32,000 nt of DNA from Candidatus Omnitrophota bacterium (GCA_963662715.1 OY759724.1:3180001-3212000); one strand, 5' to 3'; positions 3,954 to 17,156 are shown, counted from the first letter of the stretch. Translations and numbers: made by a program. Notes: generated from the letters alone by a model not told the origin.

Positions 3954-4204
3954 TTATTTTAGGACATCATCCCCGGGTATATTTCCGCTTTACCTGAAAT
4001 CCGGGAATCTATAAGGAATTGTCATTCAGATATCTTTAATATTAAGATGATCTGAATTTTCGCAAGTAAATTTTATTATTATTGTATCTCTTTTCAATTT
4101 TTTTGCATCTGCTTTTTAAAACATTCGGGTATTCCTTCAATACGGGCCGGTCTCCCCGAGATAATGGGCCTACGGACAAAGATTATCAGGACAAAAGGCT
4201 TAAA

Positions 4205-4549: not shown

Positions 4550-4797
4550 GGGTTTTTTACCTTCAAGCATGTCCAAGGCTCTAAAGCCCGGAGTGACAGG
4601 GGAAACCATCCTTAGCCATTATTGCTTCATTTTTCTGCATTTTGCCCTTCCTGACGGCACGGCTTCAGTATAAACATTTTTCCGAACTAGGCTCATGGTT
4701 CGGGAAAATCACTTGTTTCTGCATATTATGCGACTTTCGAACCAAAAGGAAACAAAGCCCCCCTTGCCAAAACCCGTTCCATGTGATACTATTACAA

Positions 4798-4824
4798 TGA
4801 TAGTATCATTATGATACTATCATA
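4798..4824. promoter_or_regulatory. 27-bp perfect palindrome (13-1-13), candidate operator upstream of fic
   Basis: ATGATAGTATCAT-T-ATGATACTATCAT, ending about 16 nt before the fic start codon. A third half-site-like copy TGATACTAT lies at about 4785-4793. Coordinates are +/-1: my manual count of the printed sequence disagrees by 1 nt with the ORF track in this stretch. Confidence 0.55.
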
Positions 4825-4839
4825 AATAAAGGAATCGAT

Positions 4840-5805
4840 ATGAGACCGCCATATACCATCACAAACGACATCCTGACTCTTTGCACAGAGATCACCATGC
4901 TGTTGGGTAAATACGAGGGATTACAGGCCCCTGTGCCCAAGCCAGAGCTGCGTAAGCATACAAAAATTATCACCATTCAATCGAGCCTGGCTATAGAAGG
5001 GAATACTTTATCCATAGATCAGGTGACAGATATTATTAACCACAAAAGGGTAGCAGGCCCTCAAAAGGATATTCTGGAAGTTAAAAACGCCATTAAGGTT
5101 TATGACATGCTGGATAAGTTTGAGCCGGAAAGCCTTGAGTCATTGTTAAAAGCTCATAAAATTCTTATGGAGGGCCTTATAACGGATGCGGGGAAACTGA
5201 GGGGCGGTAATGTGGGCATCCGGTCAGGGGGAAAAATCGTTCACATGGCTCCGAAATACACGATGGTTCCCCAATTAATGGGTGACCTGTTTACGTTTCT
5301 TAAAGAAGAAACGGATATCCACCCGCTCATCAAATCCAGTGTCTTTCATTATGAGTTTGAGTTCATTCATCCCTTTATGGACGGAAACGGGCGCATAGGG
5401 CGTTTGTGGCAATCCGTGATTTTGTATAATTACCGCAAAATTTTTGAATACATCCCTGTTGAGACTGTCGTCAAACGCCGGCAAATGGAATATTATGACG
5501 CCCTGGCACAATCCAGCAAAAAAGGGAACTCAACCGTATTCATTAAATTTATGCTGGAAACAATCAAAGAAGCCACCCTTGAATTCACAAAGGAACTCAA
5601 ACCCGTTAAGCAATCTACGGACTTAAGGATCGAAACCGCTAAAAATCACTTTAAAAATTCATCATTCTCCCGCAAAGATTATCTACAACTCCATCCGAAT
5701 ATCTCAACCGCCACTGCCAGCCGTGATTTAACCATTGCGGCAGCCAACGGCATCTTGCAGAAGACCGGCACCAAAGCCCAGACGAAATACCTTTTCATTA
5801 CGTAA
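4840..5805 (+). CDS. fic: Fic-family protein (class II, AMPylase-type motif) with a C-terminal HTH-like tail
   Basis: Canonical Fic motif HPFMDGNGRIGR (HxFx[D/E]GNGRxxR). An N-terminal inhibitory-helix motif S-x-x-x-E-G is present in SSLAIEGNT. The C-terminal segment SRKDYLQLHPNISTATASRDLTIAAANGILQKTG resembles a winged-helix/HTH. AAGGA SD upstream. Confidence 0.9.
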   Translation: MRPPYTITNDILTLCTEITMLLGKYEGLQAPVPKPELRKHTKIITIQSSLAIEGNTLSIDQVTDIINHKRVAGPQKDILEVKNAIKVYDMLDKFEPESLESLLKAHKILMEGLITDAGKLRGGNVGIRSGGKIVHMAPKYTMVPQLMGDLFTFLKEETDIHPLIKSSVFHYEFEFIHPFMDGNGRIGRLWQSVILYNYRKIFEYIPVETVVKRRQMEYYDALAQSSKKGNSTVFIKFMLETIKEATLEFTKELKPVKQSTDLRIETAKNHFKNSSFSRKDYLQLHPNISTATASRDLTIAAANGILQKTGTKAQTKYLFIT

Positions 5806-5919
5806 AAGCAACGGTTTCCCGGCCGGGCACGTTTGGGCTAAAGATATCCGAGTGCCCCTCAACTCACAAAAAATATATAATTTGGTTAAAAAATGCCAGT
5901 TTTAGGGCGTATTGAGCCA

Positions 5920-5948
5920 TTGACAAGGGGCAGATATGGGGGATAATA
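5920..5948 (+). promoter_or_regulatory. Putative strong promoter upstream of the gene remnant (and possibly reading toward cas6)
   Basis: TTGACA (5920-5925), a 16/17-nt spacer, then GATAAT/ATAATA (5942-5948), followed by AAGGGAGG (5964-5971) and ATG 5980. Confidence 0.4.
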
Positions 5949-5979
5949 AATTATAATTTAAATAAGGGAGGAAATATCT

Positions 5980-6157
5980 ATGTATCCCGCTAATGTTTAT
6001 AAAATTTTTTTAGCTTCCCCTAGTGACGTGGCAAAAGAAAGGCAATTGGCTCAACAAGTTATTGTTCAAGTGGAACGACTTGCATTCTCAATCTAGCAGA
6101 ATTGTCCTACAAGCAACTGGATGGGAAAAAGCTGAATTAAGTCAGTTTTTGGCGTAG
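5980..6157 (+). pseudogene. Frameshifted, truncated remnant of a larger gene (N-terminal module only)
   Basis: Frame A, ATG 5980 to TAG 6094-6096, reads MYPANVYKIFLASPSDVAKERQLAQQVIVQVERLAFSI*. The +1 frame from 6068 reads KWNDLHSQSSRIVLQATGWEKAELSQFLA* (stop 6155-6157). Together they reconstruct the pattern (I/V)F(L/I)ASP(S/G)DVxxER ... WN ... IVL ... WE that I recognise from N-termini of much longer proteins. Only about 60 codons survive. Confidence 0.45.
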
Positions 6158-6255: not shown

Positions 6256-6984
6256 TTGTACAAAGGGAAAAGGAATCCTGTCGTGAAGAACATGATTATC
6301 CCTCATAAAACTTTTGTTAGAGAAAAATTGATTTGCGTGCAGTTTGATTCGGTCCATTTACGTTCGTTTGACATTCCGAAATTCCGGGGGTATCTTTCCG
6401 AAAAATATTCCTCTTATAATTTGATCCATAATCATCTTGAAGATAATAGATTGAGATATGCCTATCCCCAGATTCAATTTAAAACCATTAACAATAAACC
6501 TGTTATTATCGGACTCGGGGAAGGGATTGAAATATTAAAGAAAGTATTTCTTGATATTCAGGAATTGAAGATTAATCAGGAGAGACTGCAGATTAATGAA
6601 AAGTCTGTCATGCTGCGGGAATGGAAGCTGGGGCAGACAGAAGAACAGGTAAAGTATCGTTTTATCTCTCCCTGGATGGCGCTGAATCAGGAAAATCATA
6701 AAAAGTATATTCATCTCAGTTGGCATGAAAAACGATCGTTTCTTGAGAGGATTCTCGCCGGGAATCTGAAATCACTGGCGAAAGGATTTCAGTATTTTAT
6801 CCCGGATTTTGATAACCTGCACGTTCAGCTTGATCTTAAGCCGGTAACCCGTAATTTTAAAAATATCAAAATGACCTGCTTTAGCGGGACATTTCAAACA
6901 AATTTTTTCATTCCCGATCACCTCGGCCTGGGCAAACAGGTCGCGCGAGGGTTTGGGGTGGTGGAGAGGTTAAAGGAGAAATGA
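6256..6984 (+). CDS. cas6: CRISPR-associated endoribonuclease Cas6
   Basis: C-terminal glycine-rich loop GLGKQVARGFGVV (GxGxxxxxGxG) typical of Cas6 RAMPs. It is the first gene of the cas operon and ends 3 nt before the next gene. The ORF-track start is TTG 6256; GTG 6283 (AAGGA 8 nt upstream) and ATG 6292 are plausible alternative starts. Confidence 0.8.
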   Translation: MYKGKRNPVVKNMIIPHKTFVREKLICVQFDSVHLRSFDIPKFRGYLSEKYSSYNLIHNHLEDNRLRYAYPQIQFKTINNKPVIIGLGEGIEILKKVFLDIQELKINQERLQINEKSVMLREWKLGQTEEQVKYRFISPWMALNQENHKKYIHLSWHEKRSFLERILAGNLKSLAKGFQYFIPDFDNLHVQLDLKPVTRNFKNIKMTCFSGTFQTNFFIPDHLGLGKQVARGFGVVERLKEK

Positions 6985-6987
6985 AAT

Positions 6988-8496
6988 ATGAGTCTAGCCT
7001 ATAAACTTTGGAGGATCGGGAGCGCATTGAATGAGGAGGATGTTTTTGAATTGATGAATGAGAATTCAAAAATTCCCGATGATCCCAGGTATTTGATGGT
7101 GGATTTTATAATCCAGGATGAAAGTGTTATAGATGTGCAAATCAAAGAGAAAGGCATCAGCAAAGATAAATTGTTTATGACACCTAAACTCGGTGGAGCA
7201 GGGACAGGGATTTATTATTTGTATCCCAACATTATTTTACAGAAGAATATTCCCTCTGAAAAAATTTTTCTATTGAAGAATACTCTATTCAACATAGTTT
7301 GCGTGTTTGCAAATGAGCCGAATAAAAAGCTGGCAGATCTTGTGATTAATCACTTTGAACGTGTTGAGGAGTTATGCTCATCGCATGAAAAAGGCGATTA
7401 TGTTTTTTGTATAACGATCAACGGAAAAACTTTTTGGGAATGTATGCCGGAGGTCTGGGAGAATTGGGTGAAATGTCCTTTTGTCGAAAATAAAAGCCTT
7501 TGCGAAGGACGGGATATCTTTACTAATGAGAGTTGCCGAGTTGGATACCAGCCAGATGTTAAGATTTTTTCTTATGATAATTATCATGATACCCTGAAAT
7601 ATCGTCTGACTAAGAATTATGCATTCTCCGCACAGAGTGCTAGGAACATTCGTTTTGGGTGGATGTTTGTTTGGGAAAATTTATTTTTTTGGTATAAAGG
7701 GCAATCTTACTGTCTTCTTCCTAATCTTATTAATTTTAGCCCGAGTGTTTATAAGGAGATTTTAATGAAATACAAGCAACTTAATAAAAAAGAGAGAGGA
7801 CGAAATGCTACGATTAGTGATTTAAAAAAACAGGAAGACGCTATTAAAAAAAAGTTAAAAAAGGAAAAAAATACGAAGAAAAAGGATGCTCTAAGAATTG
7901 AAGAATTGGAAAAGAGTCTTGAAGAGAAGTCAGCGGCTTTGTTGACATTAGACGTAGGGTTGATAATCAAAAGCCATGATGAGTTGGATAGTCTCTTGGA
8001 ATATCGAAACATGATGACGCTAGATTATTATTTTTTTGATCGTAATCTCACCAACAAATCCTTTCAGATTAAAGGCGCATTGGAAGAAATTTTGCCTAGT
8101 CAGATAAGTCGAGTGGTGAATGCTTTAAGGGAGCATAAAATTGACGAAAATATTACTTATTCCCCGAAAGAGAGAAGTGGTTTTGTAAGTCTTAAGCATT
8201 ATTTTTCTAGAAAAGAAATAGAAATTGTTTATACGAAAGGGTTTTCCGGGAGGAACGATTTCAGCAATACGATTCTTAAAGAACGTATTTATTTGGCTCG
8301 CTTACTTTTGACAGATGAACAAATATCCATAGATAACCTGATGGAGCGGTTTGAGTATCATCGCGAAAAAGACTACGAAGGGCATAAGCGAGTCCACGAT
8401 GGAATTAAGGATTGGCTCCAATATTCTGGCATATATCGCGAATCCGAAGAACGCATTCTTACATTCTTAAAACAGCTTAATAAAATAAAGGAGTAG
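6988..8496 (+). CDS. cas8b: Cascade large subunit (Cas8b-like), divergent
   Basis: Assigned mainly by position (between cas6 and cas7) and size (502 aa). AAGGAG SD. Contains a four-Cys cluster (C152, C163, C172, C183; nt 7441-7536) and a Lys/Glu-rich coiled-coil-like segment (residues 261-319). No sequence motif I can tie firmly to a named Cas8 family. Confidence 0.6.
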   Translation: MSLAYKLWRIGSALNEEDVFELMNENSKIPDDPRYLMVDFIIQDESVIDVQIKEKGISKDKLFMTPKLGGAGTGIYYLYPNIILQKNIPSEKIFLLKNTLFNIVCVFANEPNKKLADLVINHFERVEELCSSHEKGDYVFCITINGKTFWECMPEVWENWVKCPFVENKSLCEGRDIFTNESCRVGYQPDVKIFSYDNYHDTLKYRLTKNYAFSAQSARNIRFGWMFVWENLFFWYKGQSYCLLPNLINFSPSVYKEILMKYKQLNKKERGRNATISDLKKQEDAIKKKLKKEKNTKKKDALRIEELEKSLEEKSAALLTLDVGLIIKSHDELDSLLEYRNMMTLDYYFFDRNLTNKSFQIKGALEEILPSQISRVVNALREHKIDENITYSPKERSGFVSLKHYFSRKEIEIVYTKGFSGRNDFSNTILKERIYLARLLLTDEQISIDNLMERFEYHREKDYEGHKRVHDGIKDWLQYSGIYRESEERILTFLKQLNKIKE

Positions 8497-8501
8497 GGCT
8501 T

Positions 8502-8951
8502 ATGGGAGGGAAAAGCTTTAAAGAAAAATTGGAAGCCCGTATACAGGAAGATACGGCTAATTTTTGGTCTCGTCCGCAAATTCAGAAGGCATATTATTCT
8601 GGGGCTTATTCCAAGGCTATTGTTAATGGTTCATGGACTTCCAAAGTGAGTAAACAAAATGAAACATTTAAAAAGTGGCTTTCTAATCAAATTATTAATG
8701 CCAAAAACCTTGACCGTATATTTGAAATGGCTTTTCGTTTTGAGCAGAAATTAAAAATTCGGGTTCGAAACGATGGTGAAGTTCGTCGTCTTGCCCATGG
8801 AGTTGCTGCGGCTTCTGCGGCTGGGATATCAAGTGCAAAAATTTCATTTGCTTTTGTTGCTGGATTTGATGACTACGGGGTTTTTATAAAAGACAACCCT
8901 GCAGAAAAAAATCAGGATATGGATAACGAAATTAAGGAAGAACATAATTAA
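8502..8951 (+). CDS. cas11: Separately encoded small-subunit-like protein (Cas11-like), 149 aa
   Basis: Assigned by position (between the large subunit and cas7) and size. It has its own AAGGAG (8488-8493) 8 nt upstream of the ATG, embedded in the last codons of the upstream gene. Its reading frame differs from the large subunit. The sequence looks helical (KAYYSGAYSKAIV..., FKKWLSNQIINAKNLDRIFEMAFRFEQKLKI). Confidence 0.45.
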   Translation: MGGKSFKEKLEARIQEDTANFWSRPQIQKAYYSGAYSKAIVNGSWTSKVSKQNETFKKWLSNQIINAKNLDRIFEMAFRFEQKLKIRVRNDGEVRRLAHGVAAASAAGISSAKISFAFVAGFDDYGVFIKDNPAEKNQDMDNEIKEEHN

Positions 8952-8967
8952 CCTTCAGGAGGAATTT

Positions 8968-9885
8968 ATGTCAGAACAAGCTAAACACAGTGAATTGCTT
9001 TTTATTTGGGATGCCAAAACATGCAATCCGAATGGTGATATGTCGGCAGATAATGCTCCTCGTTTTGATGATGTCGATGAAAAGGCTATTGTTAGTGATG
9101 TTAGGGTTAAAAGAACGATTAGGGATGATTTACAAAAAAGGAAAAATGAGCCCATTTTTATTAACAATGATGAAATTTTATCCAAAGGGCTTACGGCTGA
9201 AGCTCGTTTTAAGGAGTTAAAAGATAAATTAAAAGATATTAAAAACGAAAAAGAAGTTTTTCTTTCTTGTATTGATAATAGGCTTTTTGGAGGAGTTGCT
9301 CCTAAAAGTGATATTCAACTTGTGGGGACTGTTCAGTTGGGATGGACTAAATCACTTAACCGTACGGAAACAATTTTAAAATCAGGTACGGGGGCTTTCG
9401 CGACTACTGGGAAGTCTGGAGAAACTAAGTATACGAAAACGTTCCGTGCCGATAATTATATCCCGTATGGACTCTTTGCAATGTATGGAACTGTCAATCG
9501 CCTGCAGGCCGAGAAAGCCAGTACGCAAGAAGAAGATATTAAAAAAATGCTAGATTCCCTTTGGATGGGAACGAAATTATTGAATACACGTAGCAAAGAG
9601 GGACAAAAATCACGTTTGCTGATACGAATTATTTACAAAGCCGAGTCCTTTTTCTTCATTGGGTTGTTGGATGAACTCGTGACCTTAAAAAATGAGGATT
9701 CTTCTCTTCTTAGAGAAATAGATGAGTGTGATATTGATTTTTCAAAATTGGTTGCGGCCATTGATGCGGCTAAGAATCATATTGAAAAGGTTGAGATTGT
9801 TCTCGATGCCTCGATGGAAAAATATCGCGATGTTTTTGGCAATCAGATTTTTTCCATTAAGACTGAGACCGAATTTATACAATAA
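8968..9885 (+). CDS. cas7: Cascade backbone subunit Cas7 (Csh2/Csd2-type, I-B/I-C clade)
   Basis: The N-terminal signature CNPNGDMSADNAPRFDDVDEKAIVSDVRVKRTIRDDL matches the NPNGD...PR.D....SDV.lKR.IRD pattern of the Csh2/Csd2 (CT1132) Cas7 family. GGAGG SD. 305 aa. Confidence 0.9.
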   Translation: MSEQAKHSELLFIWDAKTCNPNGDMSADNAPRFDDVDEKAIVSDVRVKRTIRDDLQKRKNEPIFINNDEILSKGLTAEARFKELKDKLKDIKNEKEVFLSCIDNRLFGGVAPKSDIQLVGTVQLGWTKSLNRTETILKSGTGAFATTGKSGETKYTKTFRADNYIPYGLFAMYGTVNRLQAEKASTQEEDIKKMLDSLWMGTKLLNTRSKEGQKSRLLIRIIYKAESFFFIGLLDELVTLKNEDSSLLREIDECDIDFSKLVAAIDAAKNHIEKVEIVLDASMEKYRDVFGNQIFSIKTETEFIQ

Positions 9886-9899
9886 TAAGGAGCGCGGCT

Positions 9900-10643
9900 A
9901 TGCTTGTTTTTAAAATATGGAGCAGGTTCGGCGTTTTTCGCGATCCACTGACCATCACTCAAAATATTACCTTCCCTTTGCCGCCTAAAACCACAGTAGG
10001 AGGGATGATGGCTGCGGTTTTGGGTATTGATTATAATGATTATTTTCGTGATCCAAATTATTTTTTGTTCGGGTATTCGGTCGTTACTTTGAATCCTATC
10101 AGAAAAAAAAGTTTTGCTCAAAATTATATTGATGATTATACCAAAGGATCTTCAAGAAAACTATCTCAATTGGGGAATGCTTCTAAAAAGTTCCCCGGTG
10201 ATATTGGTAAGCTGGGAGAAAAATTTACAAAGCCTAAACCAATCTTTCGAGAACTTTTGTGTGCTCCCGCATATCTTGTTTTTATTGATGATTATATATA
10301 TATAAAAAAGCTTAGAAAGGCCATAGAGAATCACACAACCGGTTTTGCCCTTTACATGGGGAATTCGGAATTCCCGGCCAATATCAAATTCATTCCTGTT
10401 TTATCCTTCAACCCGGTCAACGATGTCTGTCTCGATTCCTTCACAACCCGGCCAGATCTTCTGGAGTTTGAAGCTAACAAAAGATACACAAATTTACATT
10501 TCGCAACCAGCGTTACAGGTGAACGTGAATACACACAATACCGCAAAATCATTTTCTCCGAAGCCGGAATCCGTCTGAAGAAACCGGTGGAAGCCGTCAA
10601 AATCGTTACGGAAGACAAAACATATGTCTGTGAATTTATCTGA
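9900..10643 (+). CDS. cas5: Cascade subunit Cas5
   Basis: Cas5-type N-terminus (FGVFRDPLTITQNITFPLPPKTTVGGMMAAVLG). 247 aa, AAGGAG SD, directly follows cas7. Confidence 0.85.
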   Translation: MLVFKIWSRFGVFRDPLTITQNITFPLPPKTTVGGMMAAVLGIDYNDYFRDPNYFLFGYSVVTLNPIRKKSFAQNYIDDYTKGSSRKLSQLGNASKKFPGDIGKLGEKFTKPKPIFRELLCAPAYLVFIDDYIYIKKLRKAIENHTTGFALYMGNSEFPANIKFIPVLSFNPVNDVCLDSFTTRPDLLEFEANKRYTNLHFATSVTGEREYTQYRKIIFSEAGIRLKKPVEAVKIVTEDKTYVCEFI

Positions 10644-12849
10644 GTATTGCTCCCATCCAGGTTATCCGTACGAGAAACATATCGGAAACATTGCAGACTC
10701 TTTCCCGGATCCGTTGCATAAGGAAATCGCACATTTTCATGATGCCGGAAAACTTTCTGACAAATTCCAAAATGGTGTCCTGAAGGGAACAACAAAAACA
10801 ACGCACGCACTGGAAGGTGCTTTTGTTTATTTTGCTGACTGCTGCAAACAGAAAAGACCACTTGCGCGTGATGTGTTAACAGCATTTTGGACAATTGCGG
10901 CGCATCATACAGGTCTTGACGATTATCGTAATTTTTGGGAATCTCGGTGCACCGACTATGAGGAGCTTGTTTATGTCTTGTCTGATTTTGAGGAAAATCT
11001 TGCGCAGGTTATGGAAAGACTTTATGGGTTATCGAATTTCCCTGCGGGAAATATATGTGAGTGGTTTGATGAGAATAAGGAACAAATCGCCAAACTTCTT
11101 AAAGAACCTTTCGGGAATTTCTTTATCATTCGCGAGTCGTTCTCCCGTCTGATCTTTGCCGACAGGTATGAGGCTATATTTAAAGAATCTTTTCATGATA
11201 TGAATATGTTGGATACCCCATCGTATAAGGACAAACTTAAGGTGGTATTTGACAAATTCTCAGCAAAAGGTGGAACTCTGACTGAATATAGAAACGCTTT
11301 CCGGGAAACTATTTTGACAAATTATTATAATAGCAAGGGAAAACGTTTTTTCATTGTCGAGGCACCTACTGGAATTGGAAAGACATTGACTGCTTTGGAT
11401 CTGGCATTACATATTACCAAAGACAAAAAAAAGAAACGTATCATCACATCCCTCCCAATGACATCTATCATTGATCAGACTCAGATGGTCTATTCTGAGA
11501 TCCTTGGAGAAGACGCTGTGTTGAAAGATCACTATCTGGCAGATACTAAGAACTATGATGACCACATCGATATTCAAAAAAATGATTTCTTGATGAACAG
11601 TTGGGCAAATGACGGAATTATTGTTACTACATTTAACAGATTGTTTAATGCTCTGTTTTCTGTCAGTAACAGCGACATTTTCAAATTTTGGACTTTACGG
11701 GATAGTGTTGTAATTCTTGATGAGGTACAAACCATCCCGCGCGTGCTTATTCAAGATGTGGCACGGGTTCTGGATGAACTGTCTTTTCTGATGAATATTG
11801 ATTTTATCGTCATGTCGGCTACGGTTCCAGAGATCAAAAGATTCCTGGCCCCGGAAAAAATCGCGGTGCTTTCGAGTGACCGGTTCTTCCAGGATGAGAC
11901 CAACAACCGTTATATCCTTCAATACGATGAAAATATTCCCGATACGGATTCTCTCATCGAAGCTGTGATGCGTGCCTACAGGGGGCATCAGTCCGTCCTG
12001 TGCGTCGTCAATACCAAGAAGACCGCCTTGCAGGTTTATAAGGGTTTGAAAAAATATTTTAGTTCGGAACTGTATCTATTAAGCGGATATTTTTTGCCAT
12101 GCGAGAGAGAAAGAATTCTCAAGGAAATCGGGGAAAAACTCGGAGGCGAAAAGCTTGTCCTTGTTTCAACACAAGTAGTCGAGGCTGGTGTTGATCTGGA
12201 TTTTGATCAGGGCTTCCGCGAATTTGCTCCGTTTTCCAGTATCATTCAAACAGCCGGAAGGATTAACCGGGAAGGTAAAAATGATCCAAGTGAACTAACA
12301 GTTTTTCCCTTAATTACCTCTGGGCCTTACCACAAAATCGATATGTGTGCGGACAAGGTTATCCCTTGGTTAAAACAAGGTTTTCCAGAAAACAAATTAT
12401 TTAATGTGATAAGGCAATATTTTAAGAATATTATTGAGTCTTCCAATCCTGATCCTTTATTGCTTCAGGACATAAAAAATTTAAATTACAAGACAGTCTC
12501 GAACTCCTTCAGAAATAATTTTATGACGGATACCCCTTTTTATGTAAAAGTCTTTGTCGAAATTTGTCCCGGACTGTATGAGCAGTTTGATGAAGAACGA
12601 AAAATGCTTTTAGCCGGATTGAATGATTCGGATGAATTATCGAGAAAAATGAGATGCAAGGTTCGCCTGAGAAAAATGATGAACAAATTATCGAAGTATA
12701 TTATTAACGTATCTAAATTTGATGTCGTGGGTTTAAGCAATTTGTGGGATTTAGACGATTTATATATTTGTTTTTATGATCATTTGACAGATTATTATAA
12801 CGTTGAAAAAGGCTGGAGCGTTTCAGAATCATCTAGTTTAATGTTCTGA
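10624..12849 (+). CDS. cas3: Cas3 nuclease-helicase (fused HD + SF2 helicase)
   Basis: HD-domain motifs are present (EKHIGN, HFHDAGK, THALEG, AAHHTG). Helicase motifs: I APTGIGKT, II VILDEVQ, III SAT, V VSTQVVEAGVDLDFD, VI QTAGRINREG. The start overlaps cas5 by 20 nt. Confidence 0.95.
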   Translation: MSVNLSEYCSHPGYPYEKHIGNIADSFPDPLHKEIAHFHDAGKLSDKFQNGVLKGTTKTTHALEGAFVYFADCCKQKRPLARDVLTAFWTIAAHHTGLDDYRNFWESRCTDYEELVYVLSDFEENLAQVMERLYGLSNFPAGNICEWFDENKEQIAKLLKEPFGNFFIIRESFSRLIFADRYEAIFKESFHDMNMLDTPSYKDKLKVVFDKFSAKGGTLTEYRNAFRETILTNYYNSKGKRFFIVEAPTGIGKTLTALDLALHITKDKKKKRIITSLPMTSIIDQTQMVYSEILGEDAVLKDHYLADTKNYDDHIDIQKNDFLMNSWANDGIIVTTFNRLFNALFSVSNSDIFKFWTLRDSVVILDEVQTIPRVLIQDVARVLDELSFLMNIDFIVMSATVPEIKRFLAPEKIAVLSSDRFFQDETNNRYILQYDENIPDTDSLIEAVMRAYRGHQSVLCVVNTKKTALQVYKGLKKYFSSELYLLSGYFLPCERERILKEIGEKLGGEKLVLVSTQVVEAGVDLDFDQGFREFAPFSSIIQTAGRINREGKNDPSELTVFPLITSGPYHKIDMCADKVIPWLKQGFPENKLFNVIRQYFKNIIESSNPDPLLLQDIKNLNYKTVSNSFRNNFMTDTPFYVKVFVEICPGLYEQFDEERKMLLAGLNDSDELSRKMRCKVRLRKMMNKLSKYIINVSKFDVVGLSNLWDLDDLYICFYDHLTDYYNVEKGWSVSESSSLMF

Positions 12850-12864
12850 TAACAGGGAATATTT

Positions 12865-13848
12865 ATGCAACTCATCCTAAACACATACGGCTCATACCTC
12901 CATCAATCCGATGGGATATTTGAGGTTAAGGTAGATAAGGAGAAGACCCGTATCTCCCCCAAGAAGGTGCAGTCTATAGTTGTCACAACAGGGATTAGTT
13001 TATCATCCGATGCCATGCAGTTGGCGGTTGAAAATAATATTGACGTTTTGTTTATGGACAAGTTCGGTAATCCTTTTGGCCGGGTATGGCATGGGCGTTT
13101 GGGATCAACAGCGCGTATCCGCCGGGCGCAGTTGGAACATGCGGTATCAGAAGGGGGAATTATTATCGGAAAGAAGTTTGTCGAGAAAAAGTTTGATAAT
13201 CAAATTGCGTTTTTGCTTGCGTTGCGTGACCGGCGTACAGCCATGTCGGCAGAAATTACCAAGGTTATCCAGGTGATCAGGGACGCAAAGGAAAAGCTTC
13301 TGCTTGTGAATGGTCCGGTTGACGAGCAGCGGGGAAGCATTATGGGCATAGAAGGACAATCCGGCAGACGGTATTGGGAAATTTTAAGTTTGCTGCTGCC
13401 GGAACGGTTTCGTTTTAACGGCCGCAGCCGTAATCCGGCAGGGGATGAGTTTAATTGTCTTTTAAATTATGCTTACGGAGTTTTGTACGGGATCGTTGAA
13501 CGGGCTTGTGTTTTGGCAGGAATTGATCCTTATGTCGGTTTTATTCATACGGATCATTATGCCAAGACTTCTATGGTTTTTGATGTTATTGAAGGGTATC
13601 GTATTTTTGCGGATGAAACGGTTTTTAATTTGTTCTCACGTAAAAAAGTTAAACAGGCTTTGTTTGACCGCATGCAGAATGGTTTTGTTTTGAACAAAGA
13701 AGGTAAGGCTGTTTTGCTTGCGGATTATAATGTGTATTTGGATGACTGCATTCTTTATAATGGACGCCGTCTGAAAAGACGGGATACGATTCAGTTTGAC
13801 TTGCACAAACTAGCCAACAGCTGGATAAAAACGGATGCCGTTCTTTAG
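12865..13848 (+). CDS. cas1: Cas1 integrase
   Basis: 327 aa with Cas1-type regions EFNCLLNYAYGVLYG and GFIHTDHYAKTSMVFDVIEGYR (conserved E/H/D context). Confidence 0.95.
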   Translation: MQLILNTYGSYLHQSDGIFEVKVDKEKTRISPKKVQSIVVTTGISLSSDAMQLAVENNIDVLFMDKFGNPFGRVWHGRLGSTARIRRAQLEHAVSEGGIIIGKKFVEKKFDNQIAFLLALRDRRTAMSAEITKVIQVIRDAKEKLLLVNGPVDEQRGSIMGIEGQSGRRYWEILSLLLPERFRFNGRSRNPAGDEFNCLLNYAYGVLYGIVERACVLAGIDPYVGFIHTDHYAKTSMVFDVIEGYRIFADETVFNLFSRKKVKQALFDRMQNGFVLNKEGKAVLLADYNVYLDDCILYNGRRLKRRDTIQFDLHKLANSWIKTDAVL

Positions 13849-13876
13849 GGGGCGTGCCCGAGGAAAGACAGATGAG

Positions 13877-14182
13877 ATGAAACCAACAGAAACACTGGTT
13901 TGGGTTATTTATGATATCTGCAGTAATAATATCCGGCGCAAAGTAATCAAAGCGACTGAGGCAACCGGATTGTACCGGGTGCAGAAATCTGTTTTTTTAG
14001 GCACGATTAACCGGGCGGATCTGGATTCTCTGGCGCTTGAGATTGAAGACTTGATTGATGAGGAGAGTGATTCGGTTTATATTTTTCCGATGTGTGAGAC
14101 TGATTTTAAAAAAGTGGTTTTAAAAGGACAGGCTTTTGACAAAAGTCTTGTTACAGATGAGGTGAAAAGTTTGTTTGTCTGA
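13877..14182 (+). CDS. cas2: Cas2
   Basis: Cas2 pattern LVWVIYDI...RRKV...GLYRVQKSVFLG. I prefer ATG 13877 (GAGGAAAG 10 nt upstream) to the ORF-track start 13835, which would add 14 residues overlapping the cas1 3' end. Confidence 0.85.
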   Translation: MKPTETLVWVIYDICSNNIRRKVIKATEATGLYRVQKSVFLGTINRADLDSLALEIEDLIDEESDSVYIFPMCETDFKKVVLKGQAFDKSLVTDEVKSLFV

Positions 14183-14203
14183 TTAAAATAAAAAGGAGAA
14201 GGT

Positions 14204-14809
14204 ATGCTGAAGGTCAGTGATCCGCAACAGCAGGTCATGATAACACCGAGTGAGGTGATCGAATATTTATATTGTCCCCGATTTACATATTATCTGAATG
14301 TCTTAAGAATTGATCAGTACGAAAAAAATCGTTATAAAGTCCAGAAGGGGCGGCGTGTACATGAAGAAAGGCTGAATCATAATAAGAATTATTTAAGAAA
14401 AAAGATTCCTGTTATAAAAAAAGAAACTAATGTTTATCTGGCTGACCCTGTTTTGCGGGTGAGAGGGATTGTTGATGAAGTGCTTTATTTAGAGGATGAG
14501 TCTCTTTCTCCTGTGGATTATAAATTTTCTCCATATAAGGATTTTGTTTTTAAGACGCATAAAGTGCAGATGTGTTTGTATGCTTTACTAATTGAAAAAA
14601 ATTACCAAAAGCCCGTTAAGAAAGGGTATATTGCTTATATCAGAGGGGGGAGTAAAACCTGTGAAGTTGATATTACTGATAAAATGAAGTCGGATGCACG
14701 GGCAATCGTGGATAGTATTCTTGAGATTATTGTGGGCGAAAGATTGCCGGGAAAGACGAAAAACAAGGTGAGATGTATTGACTGTACTTATAAAAATATT
14801 TGTGTTTGA
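14204..14809 (+). CDS. cas4: Cas4 (RecB-like nuclease with 4-Cys cluster)
   Basis: N-terminal Cys (YCPRFTYY) plus C-terminal CIDCTYKNIC (CxxCxxxxxC). RecB-like motifs GIVDEV, PVDYK and VQMCLYAL. AAGGAG SD. 201 aa. Confidence 0.9.
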   Translation: MLKVSDPQQQVMITPSEVIEYLYCPRFTYYLNVLRIDQYEKNRYKVQKGRRVHEERLNHNKNYLRKKIPVIKKETNVYLADPVLRVRGIVDEVLYLEDESLSPVDYKFSPYKDFVFKTHKVQMCLYALLIEKNYQKPVKKGYIAYIRGGSKTCEVDITDKMKSDARAIVDSILEIIVGERLPGKTKNKVRCIDCTYKNICV

Positions 14810-14982
14810 GAATGGTAATGATAGAAGTTGATATATATGAATATGTTGTGGGGAATTAATCGCGGGAATAATGGTGAAAACAGAGCAGAAAAGCTCTTGT
14901 GTCGAGGGGGTTCTTTGATAATTCAATATGATTTTTGCGGAGATGAACATTTTGTGGTATATAAAGTTAGAAGAAATGTGCG
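14810..14982 (+). promoter_or_regulatory. CRISPR leader (173 bp, AT-rich)
   Basis: Lies between the cas4 stop and repeat 1. The opposite end of the array carries the degenerate repeat, so this is the leader end. Confidence 0.65.
14935..14963 (+). promoter_or_regulatory. Putative pre-crRNA promoter within the leader
   Basis: TTGCGG (14935-14940), a 17-nt spacer, then TATATA (14958-14963), 19 nt upstream of repeat 1. Confidence 0.4.
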
Positions 14983-15462
14983 GTCGTCAGTACATATCCA
15001 ACAAAACAAGGATTGAAACAGCAACCGACAAATCAAGCCCGTTGCTTCGTTCTGCGTCGTCAGTACATATCCAACAAAACAAGGATTGAAACGTAATAAC
15101 CGTAAGTAAGTTAGTAATAACCCACCATAAGGTCGTCAGTACATATCCAACAAAACAAGGATTGAAACATCATCTTGGTCACTTCGTCTAATGCAAAGCT
15201 CTGGTCGTCAGTACATATCCAACAAAACAAGGATTGAAACGGAAGTAAACGCTCACAGGGAATTGCTACGCCTAAGGGTCGTCAGTACATATCCAACAAA
15301 ACAAGGATTGAAACATATTAAAATCAACAGAGATATACTCCAAAAACTCTTGTCGTCAGTACATATCCAACAAAACAAGGATTGAAACAAGCACCAAAGA
15401 TTAAACCATGAGATACAAAAGAATCGTCGTCAGTACATATCCAACAAAACAAGGATTGAAAC

Positions 15463-16016
15463 GGCGGGACCCATCCACGGGCTGATATGCCTTCTCTTAG
15501 TCGTCAGTACATATCCAACAAAACAAGGATTGAAACTTTTTCAGAAAAAAAATACCGGCAACCGTTGAGCGGAGTCGTCAGTACATATCCAACAAAACAA
15601 GGATTGAAACACTCATCATACGTCCCCACTAAGTGGAACACATGCGGTCGTCAGTACATATCCAACAAAACAAGGATTGAAACATGTGCGCTGATCCCCA
15701 AGAACCACGCCAGGCAGCAGGTCGTCAGTACATATCCAACAAAACAAGGATTGAAACTAATGAACGCCCTCGGGGAGGAGCCGAAATGAGCATAGTCGTC
15801 AGTACATATCCAACAAAACAAGGATTGAAACTTCATGGGATGACCGCCTGTCACCTGCATTTCTCCTGGTCGTCAGTACATATCCAACAAAACAAGGATT
15901 GAAACTAGTAGCCGTCTGCTTCTTTTGCCTTATATATGCCGGTCGTCAGTACATATCCAACAAAACAAGGATTGAAACCTTCTACAGCTATCAAAGTATC
16001 ACCATTTGTCCAATAA
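15463..16016 (+). repeat. Intra-array duplicated block, copy A (spacers 7-14)
   Basis: Spacers 7-10 (15463-15720) and 13-14 (15906-16016) are identical to spacers 20-23 and 25-26. Spacers 11-12 (15758-15868) are unique to this copy. Confidence 0.95.
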
Positions 16017-16419
16017 GTCGTCAGTACATATCCAACAAAACAAGGATTGAAACAATAGATAATATTTCTATAACATCCGGGATGTTTAAGGGTCGTCAGT
16101 ACATATCCAACAAAACAAGGATTGAAACTTATTCTTTTCAGCATGGAAAAAATATAGCACATTTTGTCGTCAGTACATATCCAACAAAACAAGGATTGAA
16201 ACGAATAAAGAGAGAAACGCAGATACAACTTACATGAGTCGTCAGTACATATCCAACAAAACAAGGATTGAAACGAGAAGGATACGACATTATCGTTGAT
16301 GCCACAAACAGTCGTCAGTACATATCCAACAAAACAAGGATTGAAACCATCATATTAAACATCAGGGGCGTTTCTTAGTTGAGTCGTCAGTACATATCCA
16401 ACAAAACAAGGATTGAAAC

Positions 16420-16898
16420 GGCGGGACCCATCCACGGGCTGATATGCCTTCTCTTAGTCGTCAGTACATATCCAACAAAACAAGGATTGAAACTTTTTCA
16501 GAAAAAAAATACCGGCAACCGTTGAGCGGAGTCGTCAGTACATATCCAACAAAACAAGGATTGAAACACTCATCATACGTCCCCACTAAGTGGAACACAT
16601 GCGGTCGTCAGTACATATCCAACAAAACAAGGATTGAAACATGTGCGCTGATCCCCAAGAACCACGCCAGGCAGCAGGTCGTCAGTACATATCCAACAAA
16701 ACAAGGATTGAAACGCGACAGAACCATTGCTAGAACCAGAACCACCGGAAGTCGTCAGTACATATCCAACAAAACAAGGATTGAAACTAGTAGCCGTCTG
16801 CTTCTTTTGCCTTATATATGCCGGTCGTCAGTACATATCCAACAAAACAAGGATTGAAACCTTCTACAGCTATCAAAGTATCACCATTTGTCCAATAA
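16420..16898 (+). repeat. Intra-array duplicated block, copy B (spacers 20-26)
   Basis: Spacers 20-23 (16420-16677) equal spacers 7-10, and spacers 25-26 (16788-16898) equal spacers 13-14. Spacer 24 (16715-16750) is unique to this copy. The ORF-track peptides from 15487 and 16444 share an identical first ~90 residues, which confirms the identity. Confidence 0.95.
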
Positions 16899-17119
16899 GT
16901 CGTCAGTACATATCCAACAAAACAAGGATTGAAACTAAAACATGTGTCAAGCCTCCTGTGTATTAATTAGACGTCGTCAGTACATATCCAACAAAACAAG
17001 GATTGAAACAAGGCTTATGAAGATCTTAAACGGTCCGGGAAGCTGTGTCGTCAGTACATATCCAACAAAACAAGGATTGAAACCGAAACGAAGAACGACC
17101 AGAAAAAAGATTTTCAAGG

Positions 17120-17156
17120 GTAGTCAGCACATATCCAACAAAACAAGGATTGAAAT
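17120..17156 (+). repeat. Degenerate terminal (trailer-end) repeat
   Basis: GTAGTCAGCACATATCCAACAAAACAAGGATTGAAAT differs from the consensus at positions 3, 9 and 37. Confidence 0.9.

Follow-up and report, generated by a model that had tools for sequence, protein, structure and literature searches.

A small gene of 149 codons (ORF149), located between the large-subunit gene and cas7 in a type I-B CRISPR-Cas operon of a Candidatus Omnitrophota bacterium, very probably encodes the Cas11 small subunit of the type I-B Cascade as a cistron of its own. The gene lies at positions 8502–8951 on the + strand of the window (the whole stretch of DNA analyzed, 32,000 nucleotides), and its geometry was as the first-pass annotation had described it. 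The ORF starts with ATG and encodes 149 amino acids (16.9 kDa) between a 502-aa cas8b-like ORF and cas7; its ATG is found 5 nt past the TAG of the upstream ORF (6988–8496), and the two ORFs are in different frames ((8502−6988) mod 3 = 2). The upstream ORF ends in AAG GAG TAG, and the sequence AAGGAG (8488–8493), read directly from its last two codons (Lys-Glu) and located 8 nt before the ATG of the small gene, is the Shine-Dalgarno (SD) sequence of the latter. The proposal of an independent small-subunit cistron, made from the sequence of this locus, was supported by the homology of the ORF149 family to the Cas11 segment of Cas8b and by the presence of a cas8 gene without that segment.

The small gene is part of a complete type I-B locus on the + strand, with the order cas6b-cas8b-ORF149-cas7-cas5b-cas3-cas1-cas2-cas4 plus a CRISPR array, the cas genes being typed with PADLOC, NCBIfam and Pfam models. 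The crRNA endoribonuclease gene cas6b (6256–6984; PADLOC Cas6, E 3e-76; Pfam Cas6b_N and Cas6b_C) precedes the large-subunit gene cas8b (6988–8496), which encodes a 502-aa member of the TM1802 family without the Cas11-equivalent C-terminal region and with a match to the PADLOC model Cas8b PDLC01623 (E 7e-9). Downstream of ORF149 are found cas7 of the Csh2 type (8968–9885; TIGR02590, E 5e-64, above the curated cut-off), whose start at 8968 has its own AGGAGG in front, cas5b (9900–10643; PADLOC Cas5b, E 2e-28) and cas3 (10624–12849; PADLOC Cas3b, E 2e-134; TIGR01587 and TIGR01596), in which the HD nuclease (residues 35–182) and the helicase are encoded in a single gene. These are followed by cas1 (12865–13848; TIGR00287, E 2e-84), cas2 (13835–14182; PADLOC Cas2b, E 2e-39) and cas4 (14204–14809; TIGR00372, E 3e-35). 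The array (14983–17156, + strand) contains 30 copies of a 37-nt repeat ending ATTGAAAC, with 0 matches expected by chance. As its last repeat (17120–17156) is degenerate, with 3 mismatches, the leader is placed on the cas4 side (14810–14982), in agreement with transcription of the + strand.

For cas6 (TTG; 6256–6330) and cas2 (13835–13895), the mechanical ORF calls probably start too early: the profile matches set in only at residues 25 and 21, respectively, and internal Met codons are present in both. Translation of cas6b probably begins a few codons after the listed TTG, and that of cas2 probably at a site within the listed ORF. The genes flanking the cas locus of the window are chromosomal housekeeping genes. 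Between these and the cas operon, immediately upstream of the latter, is a gene encoding a Fic/DOC domain (4840–5805). In front of this gene a 14-nt unit, TGATACTATCATTA, is repeated in tandem (2.9 copies; 4784–4823) and could be an operator.

Cas8b, Cas7/Csh2, Cas5b, Cas6b, a single-gene Cas3, cas4-cas1-cas2 and the array type the locus as I-B. Type I-A was excluded, as no Csa5 match was found, cas3 is unsplit and the best models were Cas3b, Cas7b and Cas5b. The published I-B scheme includes the feature "no separate cas11 gene", and the locus departs from it by carrying a separate cas11-like gene; this constitutes a variant within I-B and is no reason to exclude the locus from the subtype.

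ORF149 is a real conserved gene and no chance ORF. When 5.8 billion proteins were searched, it matched 162 protein clusters (90% identity level) at E ≤ 1e-3, and the best 120 of these clusters were 134–156 aa long, matched at E ≤ 1.3e-42 and had source names that all read "hypothetical protein". Among the clusters listed, the sources include Ignavibacteria, Ca. Kuenenia, Thermotogota, Spirochaetales, Delongbacteria and Desulfobacterales. Stand-alone members of the family range overall from 134 to 167 aa, and the median pI of the family is 9.1. Over 35 diverse members the mean column identity was 65%, with invariant motifs that include K-x-W-L-S-N-Q and F-x-x-G-x-D-D. A family profile search with HMMER against 1.8 billion cluster representatives returned 21 relatives, all of them short and stand-alone except for a protein of 2021 aa that was matched only weakly and in part (E 5.7e-5); no Cas8 fusion was found among the 21. 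ORF149 alone had no match in Pfam, NCBIfam or PADLOC, its 35 relatives gave no consistent matches in these three collections, and nothing was found by a sequence search of the PDB with the small-family profile. RefSeq/UniProt also label as "hypothetical protein" the members from Campylobacter concisus (WP_196089201.1), Desulfocicer (WP_084069204.1) and Ca. Kuenenia (WP_164994630.1).

The position of the gene is constant as well. In 7/7 distinct loci (the window and six others) the family gene is followed directly by cas7 and lies behind a cas8-like gene; the named loci besides the window are those of Desulfocicer vacuolatum (L001), Ca. Kuenenia stuttgartiensis (L003), Campylobacter concisus and two metagenomic contigs (L012 and L013), the last two being the loci of the most divergent family members. 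In the loci other than the window, the upstream gene carries PF09484 (TM1802 family) wherever it was searched against Pfam, in all of them save L012, where it is truncated. The split is thus a clade-wide architecture, widespread and old, and not peculiar to the window locus. This qualifies the first-pass annotation, which had regarded the locus as an informative intermediate between fused and split Cascade architectures: the split cas8/cas11 architecture stood, but the locus belongs to a clade that is old and widespread, and is no unique intermediate.

This conservation also bears on whether the split could be an artefact or a decaying gene, that is, a fused cas8b broken by a frameshift or a nonsense mutation in this genome. 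A frameshift would leave two ORFs arranged as these are, out of frame with each other and separated by 5 nt. However, more than 100 clusters show the same split, conservation of both halves is strong, the small gene is equipped with an ATG and an SD of its own, no fused close relative was found by HMMER, and the array with its 30 repeats was called intact. Moreover, the frame offset from cas8 to the small gene was 2, 0, 1 and 2 in the four loci measured, covering all three values, and such a series cannot be produced by a sequencing frameshift or a recent nonsense mutation. As the split recurs with varying frame offset, it is old and no error, and a gene broken in this genome is extremely improbable.

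Gene content around the conserved core differs among the loci. The adaptation genes follow cas3 in the order cas1-cas2-cas4 in the window (12865–14809) and are arranged as cas4-cas1-cas2 in Kuenenia (L003, 12635–14340); in Desulfocicer (L001, 4087–5419) cas1-cas2 lie upstream of cas6 and cas4 comes after cas3. In contig L013, cas8 and the small gene are separated by an additional ORF of 92 aa (5726–6004), the N-terminal segment of which is hydrophobic, and the gene after cas5 encodes an acyltransferase (8163–9146) rather than Cas3.

For comparison with genes in which both parts are joined, fused TM1802-type Cas8b1 loci were searched for with the T. maritima Cas11 DNA taken from the supplement of PMC13199841, a query damaged by OCR. 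The scan of the genome collection gave one Thermotogaceae locus and that of the metagenomes five more, four of them near-duplicates. A tblastn search of plasmids with the concatenated Campylobacter pair gave no match. The fused set consists of three sequences only: L006 (Thermotogaceae), L007 (Thermotoga-like) and L008. In these loci cas7 follows directly after cas8b1, with no small gene between, and the Cas11-equivalent segment of L007 has a mass of 15,079 Da, in agreement with the 15.1 kDa reported for the T. maritima Cas11.

That the large subunit of the window lacks the small-subunit part, as the first-pass annotation had proposed, was supported by profile alignment. Split-type Cas8 proteins match PF09484 only to profile position 468–471 of 602, stopping before positions 487–601, to which the Thermotoga-type Cas11 segment maps. 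In hhalign comparisons the split Cas8 family covered only columns 54–427 of fused Cas8b1 (E 2.7e-9), and Cas8 searches with a single sequence and with a profile returned only split-type proteins and no fused relatives. The best PDB fold matches of an AF2 model of the window Cas8 (pLDDT 84) were Cas8c chains of I-C Cascade (8dfs_I, E 6.5e-5).

The last ~100 residues of this 502-aa Cas8 are helical in the AF2 model, and the Cas8e/Cse1 protein of I-E systems retains a helical bundle at its C-terminus alongside a separate Cas11. Both points would agree with a large subunit that still supplies its own small subunit, through internal initiation or through a retained Cas11-like domain, leaving ORF149 as a diverged paralogue with a specialised role. 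Against this, hhalign detected no similarity of the split Cas8 to the small family (E 0.52) or to the fused Cas11 region (E 0.45), and the Cas11 positions of the Pfam, TIGRFAM and PADLOC profiles were matched only when the small protein was appended, as detailed below; we regard such a paralogue as very unlikely. The window Cas8 also contains, at about residues 252–321 (7741–7950), a long lysine-rich helix pair resembling a coiled coil. This lysine-rich region varies in length among homologues (450–595 aa overall) and draws spurious coiled-coil matches, and some homologues have a second insertion near residue 130–200.

The segment missing from the split Cas8 has its homologue in the small protein. 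The profile similarity to a small subunit or a Cas8 C-terminus that the first-pass annotation had anticipated was detected at the level of the family, both with the Campylobacter concisus member and with hhalign. The C. concisus member alone matched PDLC01304 (residues 7–120 on profile positions 217–324 of 326, E 2.4e-6) and PDLC01623 (residues 8–121 on positions 437–542 of 544, E 4.9e-6), and the Thermotoga Cas11 segment matches the same coordinates of both profiles. ORF149 is 42% identical to the C. concisus member over 128 residues (E 4e-30); it is tied to the Cas8b profiles only through its family, with no direct match of its own.

The concatenate of the window Cas8 and ORF149 had no Pfam or PADLOC match, and the Campylobacter Cas8 was therefore used as the anchor in an assay in which a small protein was appended to it and the profile scores were compared. 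Addition of the native small protein raised the score of the Campylobacter Cas8 from 49.8 to 71.6 bits for PF09484, from 66.3 to 92.9 bits for PDLC01343 and from 53.4 to 77.8 bits for PDLC01623, and produced a match of 41.8 bits (E 4.6e-11) to TIGR02556, for which Cas8 alone had none; in all four profiles the alignment then reached the profile end. The PF09484 test included the most constructs and controls, with three native pairs and six small proteins on the Campylobacter Cas8, and position 599–600 was reached by 9/9 real constructs. ORF149 itself, when placed on the Campylobacter Cas8, extended the PF09484 match to position 599 of 602 with a gain of 7.3 bits, and for some members the gain was small or absent (P0109, +2.5 bits; P0128, −2.1 bits). 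Reversed, shuffled and Cas7 controls stopped at positions 478–505 of PF09484 with no gain, and the reversed control was negative for TIGR02556 and PADLOC too.

When an alignment of 48 family sequences was compared by hhalign with the three fused C-termini, the score was 36.2 (E 1.8e-5, probability 78%) over 114 collinear columns, compared to scores of at most 19.4 for the controls (30 column shuffles and the reversed alignment). Significance was reached only after divergent family members and the three fused sequences had been added, the narrow 35-sequence profile against single fused sequences being not significant (E 0.015 and 0.072). The small family was placed on fused columns 442–555 (E 1.6e-4), and the two split proteins tile the fused protein. 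In a MAFFT alignment, the end of the split Cas8 (...FLKQLNKIKE) was aligned to ...YLRRLNVLKGG of the fused proteins, and the starts of the small protein and of the T. maritima Cas11 were no more than about six residues apart.

Another PADLOC model, PDLC01518, labelled Cas8b and only 134 positions long, matches the Thermotoga Cas11 segment of L007 end to end (residues 5–125, E 1.2e-5), and gave no match to the Campylobacter member, ORF149 or its 35 aligned relatives. Its match to the Cas11 segment implies that curators have probably met short Cas8b C-terminal proteins before, and suggests that there are further short proteins, Cas11-like or corresponding to the Cas8b C-terminus, that carry the label of a large subunit.

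An AF2 model of ORF149 (pLDDT 82, pTM 0.78) showed a six-helix bundle with no strands and a disordered acidic tail. The protein has a pI of 9.4, and its core of 132 residues, with a pI of 9.9, contains 22 K+R versus 13 D+E and 17 F/W/Y. Small subunits have been described as having about six helices (Makarova 2011, PMC3150331), and the size, six helices and basic, aromatic-rich make-up of ORF149 fit the general small-subunit description given there. A Foldseek search of the PDB with the ORF149 model, solved I-A to I-G Cascades included, gave a best E of 2.4 and listed no CRISPR protein. Thus, of the structural expectations raised by the first-pass annotation, the helical-bundle fold was found in the AF2 model, whereas the match to a solved Cas11 or Cas8 C-terminal domain was not found by Foldseek in the PDB. 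Small helical bundles are difficult targets for Foldseek, and Cas11 families lack sequence similarity to one another. Sequence searches of the PDB with the small-family and Cas8 profiles matched no TM1802-type Cas8b or Cas11.

The absence of a fold match between the model and a solved Cas11, and of a direct match between the window protein and any curated family, would also be expected of an accessory or regulatory protein unrelated to Cas11, such as a transcriptional regulator, an anti-CRISPR-like modulator or a chaperone, present at this site by chance. This explanation is contradicted by the homology of the family to the Cas11 segment of the Cas8b profiles and to the fused C-termini, obtained with negative controls, by an adjoining Cas8 that lacks exactly that segment, and by a position that is invariant in seven loci from distant phyla. 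In addition, Pfam gave no DNA-binding domain matches and Foldseek of the ORF149 model against viral structures gave no significant match, and we consider a chance neighbor of this kind highly improbable. The more specific candidate of an anti-CRISPR or regulatory small protein was rejected, with no viral fold match, no Pfam domain and a fixed place in cas operons.

The junction between the two genes was compared with the internal start of the fused ones. In the window (8488–8496), Desulfocicer (L001, 7983–7991) and Kuenenia (L003, 7985–7993), the last two cas8 codons are AAG GAG, followed by the stop and by an ATG 5–9 nt past it. The corresponding sites of the fused genes read AAA GGA GGT ... 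ATG in L006 (about 3995–4012), AAG GGG GGT ... TTG in L007 (about 2715–2738) and AGG AAG GAG GGA ... GTG in L008 (about 2944–2967), and in all three the SD of the internal Cas11 start consists of Lys-Gly-Gly or Lys-Glu-Gly codons homologous to the end of the split cas8. Since the SD comes from homologous codons in split and fused genes, the forms differ essentially by one stop codon, and interconversion by gain or loss of that stop would be easy in either direction. The alignments point to an initiation region that is the same element in both forms, the sole architectural difference being, on this evidence, whether ribosomes translating cas8 stop or read through.

A mechanism can be proposed on this basis. 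The cas8b of this clade ends exactly where canonical TM1802-type cas8b1 carries the internal Cas11 start site, its last codons, AAG GAG, serve as the SD, and the stop comes next, with the ATG of the small gene 5 nt further on. Ribosomes would thus start cas11 at the same kind of initiation region as that used internally by fused genes, while those on cas8 would terminate rather than read through. Cas11 would be translated independently, probably in excess of Cas8, and several ORF149 copies may form the minor ("belly") filament beside Cas8, where they would stabilise the R-loop and the non-target strand by analogy with the Cas11 of other type I complexes, with presumably no Cas11-like domain tethered to Cas8.

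It is possible, if on balance doubtful, that the split preserves an ancestral two-gene state or recreates it by a single stop-codon change. If this were the case, the nested cas11 of I-B, and by extension that of I-C and I-D, would have arisen through loss of the cas8 stop codon at a junction with an SD formed by the final codons of cas8. The sites of internal initiation in fused cas8 genes would then represent fossil intergenic regions, and Cascade would be able to function without the Cas11-like domain that is covalently tethered to Cas8. The sequences offer a simple route between separate and nested cas11, namely one stop codon beside a shared SD, and the split clade constitutes a natural experiment suggesting that tethering of a Cas11-like domain to Cas8 is not required for a working I-B Cascade.

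What is new here is an I-B clade with split large and small subunits, and no new system. I-A and I-E systems have a separate cas11 gene, whereas I-B, I-C and I-D have been described as having none and as producing Cas11 by internal initiation (PMC11899642, PMC13199841, bioRxiv 10.1101/2020.04.18.045682), and our literature search turned up no report of an I-B system with a cas11 gene standing alone. The clade brings a real but modest correction to the published statement that I-B has no separate cas11 gene. A conserved, probable Cascade subunit, the ORF149 family, is labelled hypothetical and has no place in the Pfam, NCBIfam and PADLOC copies that were searched; as long as databases leave it unlabelled, the effector modules of this I-B clade are described incompletely. 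The T. maritima Cas8b1 (TM1802) includes a Cas11 of 15.1 kDa, without which Cas8b1 fails to join Cascade (PMC13199841). Reconstitution of split-type systems must include the small gene.

The known systems closest to the split clade include those in which Cas11b is produced by internal translation in cas8b, as in T. maritima (TM1802/Cas8b1) and in the I-B systems of Synechocystis, Haloferax and Leptospira (McBride et al. 2020). The ORF149 family represents the same protein segment, aligning end to end with the Thermotoga-type Cas11 region, and shares with T. maritima-type Cas11b a similar size (15–17 kDa), the position of the SD (homologous Lys-Glu / Lys-Gly-Gly codons) and the operon place before cas7. 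It differs in the stop codon between SD and start, and hence in having a separate cas11 gene and a Cas8 without a tethered Cas11-like domain, in a sequence identity of only about 16% to the fused Cas11 segment, and in its start codon, which is ATG in the window and TTG or GTG in 2/3 fused examples. With cse2 of I-E and csa5 of I-A it shares a separate small all-alpha gene beside the large-subunit and cas7 genes, and with I-E also the gene order cas8-cas11-cas7, but no sequence or Foldseek similarity to either was detectable and the rest of the window operon is I-B. In the Synechocystis I-B Cascade (PDB 8H67/8IP0), the belly, which holds the non-target strand, is made up of Cas8b and three free copies of Cas11b, and the C-terminal domain of Cas8b is identical to Cas11b and covalently attached (PMC11096372). 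The window Cas8 and ORF149 had no sequence match to 8H67/8IP0, and the entry was absent among the Foldseek matches listed. By analogy, this Synechocystis complex would be the expected functional model for the complex containing ORF149.
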